Part shown: one piece after another, positions 35,757-38,522 of the stretch
Layout of the letters: every line of letters starts with the position of its first letter
How positions within the stretch are numbered: the first letter of the stretch is position 1
Origin: Escherichia phage ZH4
Length of the DNA: 39,496 bases
Reading direction: 5' to 3' (one strand)
Sequence record: OM355495.1
Made by a program: the position numbers and the translations under genes
Notes under the pieces: generated by a model
Seen by the model: the letters and a program-made list of their open reading frames with translations, nothing else
Databases searched by the model: none
Told to the model about the DNA's origin: nothing

Positions 35757-37520
35757 CTAGTGGAACGTAACGTAGGACCCTAGTCCCAGCTCGTCGTCTG
35801 TATCGTGAGTTACCCTGACCCCATTGTCCCAGAACTCAGTGTGTATTGACTCGAAGCCTTTCCGTGGGTTCTCCATCTGTTCCTCAAGCCACTCCTCAGT
35901 GACTTCACGTTCTCCTTTGTTGGCATCCTTAGCCATGGACTCAACGAAGAACTGTACACCGATAGCCAGCGCATCAAGTCGGTCATCATGTGCCAAGGCT
36001 CCACGTTCACGAGATATACGTGTCATCTGGTAGAAGAGAGAGTAGATAGGGTTACGAACACCATCCTTATCAGCGGCTGACTGGTAGTCTTGGACGATAG
36101 CAGCAGCGTTAACGATAAGTCTGTGAGACCCCATGATAGGCTCCAGAACGTCACAGATGCGGAGTTCTTTCTGACCCTTACTCTTCACTTCAGTTACAGC
36201 AGCAGGATGGATACGGGCCGCTACAGGCTTGAATAACTCAAGGTACATACCATCACCGAAGTTACCCTCAATGACGTATTCGTTGACCTTCCACTTACGA
36301 CCAATCTTAGCCAAGGCTTCCAGCGTAGAGTCTTCATAACCACCACGCATGCCACCAACTTCCATAGCGAAGATGTAGCCGTTGAGTTGATACAGTACCG
36401 CATAACCAGTTTCATCCTTACCACGACCACTAGGGTCAATGACCAGAATCTTCTGGGTGTATGAGCTGAACGCAGAACCTACAGTCTGATACGTGTGGTA
36501 CGAGTCACCCATGAGTCCAACGTTAGGAACGTCCTCACGCTTGTTCTGAGGGTTCGGCAACCATTGGTAGACCATTGGACTGGACGCTGGGTCCAAGTCT
36601 GCTACGATAAGGTCACGGAGCTTCAGAGGGTACTTCTCTGCATCACTCAGGTTCGGGTTAAGCATGAACTGTAGAGCGAAGCCAGCTTTACCGTAAGATA
36701 ACTCACGTTCCTTAAGGTCCGTATCATCGAAGCGTACTTCATCAGTCGGACGCCAGTAGAAGGACTCAGGGTCCTCTTCCAGCTCTGCTTGAAGCATAGG
36801 AGCCAGACGGTCGCCGTAAGACTGCCAGTCCTTCCTGTCGCGTGGATAACGAGCCGGCCAGATAGTAGTGGTATACCCACGACCTTCAAGCTCACGATAC
36901 AGGGTCATCTCGTTCTGAGGAGTACCCAGATAGATTATTGTACCTCCAGGCTTAAGGATAGCGTCGAACTCTTTCACAAGCTCTGACAGACGGTCTCGCG
37001 CAGCCTGAGTAGCAGAGTTGTTAGGAACCTCCACGTCATCGGCAATCAGGATGTCAGCACGACTACCAGTCAACTGACCAGTGATACCAACGGACTTAAC
37101 AGAAGGTGAGTGGTCTGGCTTGGCTGGCCCAACGTCGAAGCTAATAACCGCATCTCGCTGTCCCTGCTTAGGTTTGAGTTCCTGAAGCTGAGGCATTAGG
37201 TCGATGATTCGCTTGATGAAGATGGAGTTAGCATCAGCTCGTTCCTTTGAGGCCGACACAATCATGAACTTCAAGTCTGGGTTGTTCCATAGTTTCCAGA
37301 CCACGAAGGCACACGTAATGAAGGACTTCCCGATACCACGGAACGCCTGTAGGATGAAACGCCTGTTGTCCCCAGCGGAGAGCTTACGAGCCATATCTAT
37401 CTGGCATCTAGTCGGGACTGGTAGTGACAGAGCTTTCCACAGGACGAACAGGAAGAACACGAAGTCTGCCTTCATACGGGCAGTCATTAGCGCCTGACGC
37501 GCCACTAAGTCTTTACTCAA
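35757..37520 (-). CDS. Terminase large subunit / DNA maturase B (T7 gp19 homolog), 587 aa
   Basis: Near-identical blocks with T7 gp19 ([167 protein letters not shown]). Confidence 0.98.
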
Positions 37521-37966
37521 TGCGTCACCTCCTTATCTTGCTGCAAGGCTCTCACAGTGTCCTGAAGGGCCTTAATCCACTTGTCTCCTTTCAGTCCGAT
37601 GGCGATAAGACGTTTAGCATCTCGTTCGTCAAGTTCGGCGTAACCATCAATGACGCATCGACCGTCACTTTGCGTGGTTCCACTCGTTGGTTTGACTCGG
37701 ATGCGCAGCCGCTTATTGTCAGACTGAAGGTCAGCAATAATCCTATCAGTGCTACCTTCCAGCGAGGACATTTCGTCCTGAAACCGCTTGGACACTTTGC
37801 TGACTTCAGCTTGGACAGCAAGCCTTGTATCTTCCGATGCCTTAAGATTCGAGGTGTATTCTGCATTGACCTTAGCCTCCCACTTATTGTTAGCGGTGTG
37901 GTAGCCACCAGCAAACATCACTGCTGCAAGTAACCACGGAGCCGCTCTCTTTAAAAATTCGAGCAT
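37517..37966 (-). CDS. Rz-like i-spanin (T7 gp18.5 position), 149 aa
   Basis: N-terminal transmembrane segment ([15 protein letters not shown]) followed by a charged periplasmic segment; sits between small and large terminase as T7 18.5 does; contains an embedded out-of-frame ORF. Confidence 0.75.
37591..37866 (-). CDS. Putative Rz1-like o-spanin embedded in the +1 frame of the Rz-like gene; start codon uncertain
   Basis: Embedded frame encodes ...[18 protein letters not shown]..., a hydrophobic stretch ending in a lipobox-like ISGC, but the nearest in-frame ATG is about 50 codons upstream. Confidence 0.3.
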   Translation of the reverse strand: MQNTPRILRHRKIQGLLSKLKSAKCPSGFRTKCPRWKVALIGLLLTFSLTISGCASESNQRVEPRKVTVDASLMVTPNLTNEMLNVLSPSD

Positions 37967-38020: not shown

Positions 38021-38064
38021 TTAACCATAAAGGCCACTACACATAGTAATGACCTTGAGTCTAA
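38021..38064 (-). repeat. Conserved 43-bp element copy 3 (putative RNase III site, R18.5 position) between small terminase and the Rz-like gene
   Basis: Plus sense TTAACCATAAAGGCCAC...AATGACCTTGAGTCTAA; same element as 22090..22130 and 29734..29776. Confidence 0.55.
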
Positions 38065-38067
38065 CAC

Positions 38068-38331
38068 TTATTGAACGCCATACCCGGTGTCATTATCCTC
38101 AGTCGCTGAAAGCACCTTATCGTACTCTGCGTTCAGGGCCTCCATATCAGCGAGCGTCTTCTCGTCAACAGACACCTTGCTTAGCACGAAGTTGTGACGA
38201 GCCAGTAGCTTCTCAATGGCGTTGTAAAGCTGAGGTGAACGCTTAGAGTCATCCCGCAGGTCTTGCAGCATGAGTCGAGCACGTTCAGTATCTAGCATTA
38301 AGAGGAACTTCTCTAAGTCCATCTGCGTCAT
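38068..38331 (-). CDS. Terminase small subunit / DNA maturase A (T7 gp18 homolog), 87 aa
   Basis: LLMLDTERARLMLQDL...RSPQLYNAIEKLLARHNF is consistent with the T7 gp18 N-terminal region; position between holin and Rz. Confidence 0.8.
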   Translation of the reverse strand: MTQMDLEKFLLMLDTERARLMLQDLRDDSKRSPQLYNAIEKLLARHNFVLSKVSVDEKTLADMEALNAEYDKVLSATEDNDTGYGVQ

Positions 38332-38522
38332 GTTTTACCACCTCCTTTAATCGTTTTGTAGACCAGAACACCAATCTGGACAACGGTGTACGCGATAGCT
38401 GCAACGTAGAACCACTCGTTCAGTGTGAGTCCAAAGAAGAACCGACTGGCACCATCAGCCGCAGCGGTCCCGACGATAGGAGAGGCTTTAAGGACCTCAT
38501 TCTTGAAGTCTAACTCAATCAT
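38328..38522 (-). CDS. Class II holin (T7 gp17.5 homolog), 64 aa
   Basis: MIELDFKNEVLKASPIVGTAAADGASRFFFGLTLNEWFYVAAIAYTVVQIG versus T7 gp17.5 MLSLDFNNELIKAAPIVGTGVADVSARLFFGLSLNEWFYVAAIAYTVVQIG. Confidence 0.93.
   Translation of the reverse strand: MIELDFKNEVLKASPIVGTAAADGASRFFFGLTLNEWFYVAAIAYTVVQIGVLVYKTIKGGGKT

Follow-up and report, generated by a model that had tools for sequence, protein, structure and literature searches.

The lambda gene Rz1 lies wholly in the +1 frame of Rz and encodes a small outer-membrane lipoprotein with a mature length of about 40 aa. Its signal peptide is short and conventional (~19-20 aa), and the protein has periplasmic Cys residues for disulfide-linked dimers. 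Rz1 acts with Rz as a two-component spanin, and the spanin model has such complexes disrupt the outer membrane after murein degradation (PMC6139136). In phage T7, gene 18.7 occupies the +1 frame inside the Rz-like gene 18.5, between the genes for the two terminase subunits. Its product has a long leader, with the lipobox Cys at residue 49, and the T7 RefSeq record notes an interaction between gp18.5 and gp18.7; according to a citation within PMC3276506, it is the C-terminus of gp18.7 (last 10 residues) that binds gp18.5.

For K1F, a phage of the same genus as the one described here, SpaninDB flags gp18.7 with "Too long signal sequence" (Kongari et al., 2018; PMC6139136, Table S1), and its curators moved the start downstream to obtain a good LipoP hit both in K1F and in phage 13a (PMC6139136). 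The K1F RefSeq record leaves the gene unannotated. The gene and its odd leader are already known; what we add is comparative evidence favouring an upstream ATG as the start.

The spanin locus of Escherichia phage ZH4

The window analysed is the whole 39,496-nt sequence of Escherichia phage ZH4 (OM355495.1), a Kayfunavirus genome (K1F-like, T7 family, Studiervirinae) in which the spanin locus and all genes surrounding it lie on the minus strand. Neighbours were assigned by Pfam and comprise a T7-family class II holin gene (38328-38522; PF10746, E 2e-22), the small terminase subunit gene, TerS (38068-38331; PF11123), and the large terminase subunit gene, TerL (35757-37520; PF22530). The order holin, TerS, Rz/Rz1, TerL matches T7 genes 17.5, 18, 18.5/18.7 and 19. 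Across the 551 bases surrounding the Rz-like gene, identity to many Escherichia Kayfunavirus phages is 98-99%, and 184 phage records match.

The Rz-like gene itself (37517-37966, minus strand; 149 codons, 149 aa) is the equivalent of gene 18.5. Its product matches PHROG 1327 ("Rz-like spanin", E 2.9e-60) and shares 56% identity with T7 gp18.5, while the Pfam family Phage_lysis is hit at 23 bits, slightly below its cut-off of 25.4. A hydrophobic anchor is visible in the translation at residues 8-22, near the N-terminus. Family match, identity to T7 gp18.5 and this anchor together identify the protein as an i-spanin partner with a predicted N-terminal anchor and periplasmic domain, and in relatives the gene is annotated as i-spanin or Rz-like. 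No NCBIfam model matches either the Rz-like protein or the embedded product.

The first-pass annotation had pointed to a hydrophobic segment ending in ISGC, encoded in the +1 frame inside this gene, as a candidate Rz1-type o-spanin, and both parts of that proposal are borne out. The +1-frame ORF is open from 37914 to a stop at 37593-37591 and gives 91 aa when read from the ATG at 37866, so delimited as an o-spanin gene at 37591-37866 (minus strand) that begins 100 nt after the Rz start and ends 74 nt before the Rz stop. The encoded protein scores 88.6 bits with Pfam PF17531 (O_Spanin_T7; cut-off 25, E 2.6e-25), covering profile positions 3-58 of 59, and it matches PHROG 4306 ("Rz-like spanin") with E 6.4e-36, residues 2-88 aligning to profile positions 1-83 of 84. 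Together with the surrounding holin, TerS, Rz/Rz1 and TerL genes, these matches place it in the T7 gp18.7 family, and we consider it almost certain that the embedded gene encodes the gp18.7-type o-spanin of Kayfunavirus.

Read from the ATG, the precursor begins with a long basic n-region of 36 residues after Met (37756-37863) that contains no acidic residues and carries a charge of about +11 by manual count (+10 up to the final WK). It is followed by an uncharged hydrophobic core of 16 residues (37708-37755), lying within the PF17531 match, whose last three residues are the lipobox I-S-G, and then by a mature lipoprotein of 38 aa (37594-37707). The pattern of a lipoprotein signal is present, with a positively charged n-region, an uncharged core exceeding the customary minimum of about 10 residues, and small residues ahead of the Cys, Ser at -2 and Gly at -1. 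The Cys codon occupies 37707-37705; lipidation is predicted at this Cys, which is Cys70 when numbered from the TTG at 37914 and residue 54 from the ATG. Lol sorting sends lipoproteins to the outer membrane when position +2 is not Asp, and the Ala found there in the ZH4 protein makes outer-membrane sorting the expected outcome. Core and lipobox fit the consensus [LVI][ASTVI][GAS]C quoted in PMC6139136.

The mature part has no Cys besides the lipidated one. A VDASLMV..N.T..L..LS block in it is conserved in all relatives, and its C-terminal block aligns with TEMLNVFSQ of T7. From its translation, the mature 38-residue lipoprotein would be identical whichever start operates, and the question of the start thus bears on expression and export and not on the final protein.

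Relative to T7 gp18.7, the ZH4 protein shares the PRWK-ALIGL core, the TISGC lipobox, the CASES mature start and the VD.SLMV.PNLT.EMLNV C-terminus. It differs in a leader that has 5 extra residues and whose sequence, past the first few positions and up to PRWK, is unrelated, in lacking the in-frame ATG at -31 and TTG at -21 (codons relative to Cys) found in T7, and in a mature part of 38 aa as opposed to 35 aa. K1F gp18.7 is nearly identical in sequence, with the same leader type, a TISG lipobox and a 38-aa mature protein. The likeness to lambda Rz1 is one of gene arrangement and size; the Pfam family matched by the ZH4 protein is T7-specific.

Among relatives that are 98-99% identical, the gene is annotated as o-spanin or Rz1-like where it was called, and most of those listed omit it. 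Gene callers seldom report embedded genes, and a protein database search accordingly returned only 7 clusters; their annotated lengths of 57, 74, 84, 90, 91 and 142 aa do not settle the start, and the 91-aa cluster carries the name "Rz1-like spanin outer membrane subunit". Two 57-aa entries of the same name (P0004 and P0007) have their first residue right at the hydrophobic core (MKGWKAALIG...), which adds a third start to those annotated. Their source contigs, of 232 and 368 bp, bear the labels Micrococcus luteus and Staphylococcus argensis, and contamination of these Gram-positive assemblies by T7-like phage appears to be the origin.

Several other features of the locus were recorded. Between the small terminase and Rz-like genes lies a stable 11-bp hairpin, AAGGUCAUUAC-UAUGU-GUAGUGGCCUU (38030-38056, minus strand), within a 116-nt intergenic RNA whose folding z-score is -4.25. 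T7 and two other clades have the hairpin at the corresponding position, with both stem arms varying and pairing kept; its position is presumably that of the T7 RNase III site R18.5. A 24-nt stretch upstream of Rz was considered as a phage promoter and rejected, as a search for further copies returned the query alone. A scan for sigma-70 promoters and terminators around the locus gave nothing above shuffle expectation bearing on the o-spanin, and Rfam had no match at gathering thresholds anywhere in the window. At 37520 the first codon of the TerL ORF, a TTG, shares bases with the Rz stop (TTGA, 37517-37520, minus strand), and the start is annotated in this way in Peacock, Pipis and MopsHU1; the K1F RefSeq record (locus L064) places it 33 nt further downstream, at 37030 in K1F coordinates, so the TerL start is also annotated inconsistently within Kayfunavirus.

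Two database records deserve comment. MT350292.1, "Enterococcus phage EFA-1" with Enterococcus faecalis as stated host, is 98.5% identical to the E. coli phage ZH4 across this Gram-negative-specific spanin locus, and its host label looks doubtful. In PP766721.1 (Baskent_phicoli_1, L004), the spanin region matches in two pieces over 715 bp, compared to 551 bp in the query, and an additional 171-nt "hypothetical protein" CDS separates the Rz-like gene, here slightly shortened, from the terminase gene, which suggests an insertion directly after the spanin genes.

Start signals in ZH4 and its relatives

The ATG at 37864-37866 is the sole ATG in the open frame. It stands exactly 53 codons before the Cys, in agreement with the signal peptide of about 53 aa that had been estimated for the nearest ATG, and combines bases 2 and 3 of Rz codon 34 (AAT, Asn) with base 1 of codon 35. 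The sequence before it, TAAGTGGGAGGCTAAGGTCA, places a GGGAGG Shine-Dalgarno 9 nt upstream (37876-37881, minus strand), which in the Rz frame reads TGG GAG G (Trp-Glu). The duplex of this element with the 16S rRNA 3' end is predicted at -10.2 kcal/mol, the strongest among the in-frame candidate starts. Those others are TTG 37914 and GTG 37908 (-69 and -67 codons from Cys, after the last upstream stop), TTG 37821 (37819-37821, -38 codons) with only GGAAG as a weak Shine-Dalgarno (-3.5 kcal/mol), and TTG 37737 (-10), which falls inside the hydrophobic core. No canonical start lies in frame between 11 and 37 codons before the Cys, the range for a typical lipoprotein signal peptide. The first-pass statement that no ATG, GTG or TTG occurs at a suitable distance holds for that interval, but TTG 37821, one codon beyond it, had been missed.

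Rules of the PROSITE PS51257 type look for the lipidated Cys among roughly the first 15-35 precursor residues. In ZH4, counting from the ATG puts the Cys at residue 54 and counting from TTG 37821 puts it at residue 39, and T7 gp18.7, with its Cys at 49, is likewise outside this range. The rule is a convention of prediction programs and not a proven limit of the export machinery.

To place the start in a family context we assembled 58 related IMG/VR loci together with T7 and four relatives from GenBank, which reduced to 56 distinct Rz-like genes with 41-99% protein identity to the ZH4 Rz-like protein; these share ancestry, so that a count of 56/56 does not stand for 56 independent events. An ATG is present 48-53 codons before the lipobox Cys in 56/56, T7 gene 18.7 included, and always at the same or an adjacent codon within a KW..(E/K)V.N block. 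In T7 it falls one codon downstream in the alignment and is again preceded by a strong Shine-Dalgarno, so that start codon and ribosome-binding site both correspond to those of gene 18.7. The anti-Shine-Dalgarno duplex of this ATG is the strongest in each of the 56 relatives (-10.2 to -13.9 kcal/mol); the majority of the remaining in-frame starts do not reach -4 kcal/mol, and none is shared between clades.

The Rz codons that contain these signals are fixed at synonymous positions. At the ATG, the Rz Asn/Asp codon ends in T in 56/56 (AAT or GAT), compared to 440 T and 469 C at the other Asn/Asp codons of the same genes; in ZH4 TerL, AAT:AAC is 1:19. Similarly, the Glu codon within the Shine-Dalgarno is GAG in 56/56, while elsewhere in Rz there are 214 GAG and 368 GAA (37% GAG). 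Fixation of this kind at Rz-synonymous positions is expected under selection for a start signal. The ATG is moreover kept through different Rz codon pairs (AAT-GCA, AAT-GAG, GAT-GAG and AAT-GAT-GAG), each time from the last two bases of Asn/Asp and the following G. Its retention across differing codon contexts, despite shared ancestry, argues for selection.

The 29-34 codons that separate the ATG from the hydrophobic core are free of +1-frame stops in 56/56; read in the +2 frame, this segment is interrupted in every relative (open in 0/56). When Rz codons were re-drawn synonymously from phage codon usage, the chance of an open +1 frame averaged 0.24 per sequence (range 0.10-0.54). For the ATG-proximal half it was 0.49 per sequence, and multiplying across 11 clade representatives gives 0.003, a figure that is optimistic in treating clades as independent. 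Upstream of the ATG, stops occur in about 50 of the 56 relatives by manual count from the per-locus listing, and in about a dozen (L013, L015-L019, L022-L025, L044 and L061) a stop lies within one codon of the ATG, so that the boundary of the ORF coincides with it.

Further starts downstream of the ATG differ by clade, with a TTG at -38 in K1F-type loci, an ATG at -31 in most T7-type loci and a TTG at -21 in T7-type loci; initiation at more than one site is possible on this pattern. The Rz Glu codon just upstream of TTG 37821 (37819-37836, minus strand) is GAA in ZH4 and GAG in 6 K1F-type relatives (L003, L007 and L011-L014). This Rz-silent difference converts GGAAG before the TTG into GGAGG at 9 nt, from -3.5 to -9.5 kcal/mol, and the predicted strength of the second possible start is thus polymorphic within the genus. 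We found no direct protein or ribosome-profiling evidence in the literature for the N-terminus or initiation site of any gp18.7. As judged from these comparisons, translation probably starts mainly at ATG 37866.

Constraint on the embedded frame and alternative readings

Third positions of Rz codons are second positions of the o-spanin frame, and nucleotide diversity at these sites was compared by region. It is 0.47 in the Rz-only N-terminal part, 0.52 in the Rz-only C-terminal part and 0.44 over the leader, in contrast to 0.225 over the hydrophobic core and lipobox, the lowest value of the gene, and 0.29 over the mature o-spanin. By this measure selection acts in the embedded frame on the core, on the lipobox and on the mature protein. 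The leader amino-acid sequence gives no sign of purifying selection. Selection for its basic charge was also considered and rejected: the observed mean of +8.6 compares with +7.3 for synonymous shuffles, and no clade representative has a leader charge significantly above its own shuffles. Translation through the leader is supported, at the level of sequence, solely by the lack of stops and the conserved start signals. Most simply, the leader can be read as a spacer and an apparent by-product of the overlap, and its length, judged across the relatives, is a family-wide trait and not a defect of the ZH4 locus.

A lipobox arising by coincidence, in a frame that is not expressed and with the Rz-like protein acting alone, had been left open by the first-pass annotation. 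The reduced Rz-synonymous diversity rules out the coincidence, since the sites are constrained exactly over the core and mature region; the Pfam match (E 2.6e-25) and the conservation of the Cys, the core and the C-terminal block in every relative examined argue in the same direction. That most GenBank relatives among the matches listed annotate the Rz-like gene only, and that NCBIfam lacks a model for the embedded product, would fit a solitary Rz-like protein, but gene callers have a known bias against embedded o-spanins (PMC6139136), and T7 gp18.7 is recorded as the partner of gp18.5. Given a conserved embedded gene there is no reason to think that the Rz-like protein works alone, and we give this reading hardly any credence. 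Scarcely more probable is the non-canonical initiation that had been suggested for a gene thought to be without a canonical start codon, for instance at a CTG or ATA near the hydrophobic core, which would yield a signal peptide of normal length. The empty interval of 11-37 codons before the Cys invites such a reading, and near-cognate codons exist there (CTG 37749 at -14, ATA 37746 at -13). Both, however, are downstream of the only nearby basic residues (R51 and K53), leaving a product with no positive n-region, and a start near the core is not family-wide, the TTG at -21 of T7-type loci being TGT in ZH4. A strong canonical start conserved in 56/56 relatives and in T7 gene 18.7 is already available upstream.

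The competition is closer for a reading that keeps the same o-spanin and takes TTG 37821 as the main start, with a 38-residue signal peptide and the ATG unused. Existing annotations are divided on this point: the TTG is annotated in the Peacock record and its equivalent was chosen by the SpaninDB curators for K1F, where it gives a good LipoP hit, whereas Pipis (from the same group as Peacock) and MopsHU1 use the ATG, as does EcoDS1, whose gp18.7 is annotated at 91 aa, the ATG length. A TTG at -38 is found in every locus with a K1F-type leader, and 6 of these have the GGAGG form of its Shine-Dalgarno at -9.5 kcal/mol, but in ZH4 the duplex is weak (-3.5 vs. -10.2 kcal/mol for the ATG), and no start occurs at this position outside K1F-type loci, while the ATG and its Shine-Dalgarno are universal. 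The +1 frame is moreover free of stops from the ATG to this position in 56/56 relatives, and a 38-residue leader would still be atypically long. A point against the ATG is the position of the Cys at residue 54, well beyond the usual 15-35. Our comparison favours the upstream ATG over the choice made for K1F, and we regard the TTG as an unlikely main start.

Proposed export pathway and implications

The account that we consider very likely is that of a gene-18.7-type o-spanin in the +1 frame of the Rz-like i-spanin gene, translated most likely from the canonical ATG 37866 with its GGGAGG. The choice of start comes from the comparisons, and the steps of export and lysis are inferred from established lipoprotein and spanin biology. 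The start signal would have been placed where the Rz motif KW(E/K).(E/K)V.(N/D) can encode both a Shine-Dalgarno and an ATG, and the stretch between it and the hydrophobic core would need only freedom from stop codons. The resulting 91-aa precursor would carry a 53-residue signal peptide, composed of a basic n-region of ~37 residues and the 16-residue core ending in the lipobox ISG|C. On insertion of the precursor and Sec export, the n-region would stay in the cytoplasm; lipidation by Lgt and cleavage by Lsp at ISG|C would then yield the 38-residue lipoprotein, which, with Ala at +2, the Lol pathway would carry to the outer membrane. There its conserved C-terminal segment may bind the periplasmic C-terminus of the i-spanin, by analogy with T7, and once endolysin has removed the murein the spanin complex would disrupt or fuse the outer membrane.

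A different role for the leader can be imagined, in which T7-family o-spanins are truly made with signal peptides of 48-53 residues and the highly basic leader of ~35 residues performs a separate function. Sec targeting could be slowed or timed by it to give late maturation of the spanin, or the membrane could be a target of the peptide that Lsp releases; we consider such a role quite improbable, and retain the reading of the leader as a spacer.

The biological weight of the start assignment is small, as this is a well-known lysis gene whose mature protein is unchanged by the choice. Its consequences are for annotation. In SpaninDB the start was moved downstream just to satisfy a signal-peptide predictor, and length cut-offs in lipoprotein predictors will miss the whole gp18.7 family. 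The conserved ATG and Shine-Dalgarno, the fixed Rz-synonymous sites and the open frame provide a principled reason to annotate the ATG.
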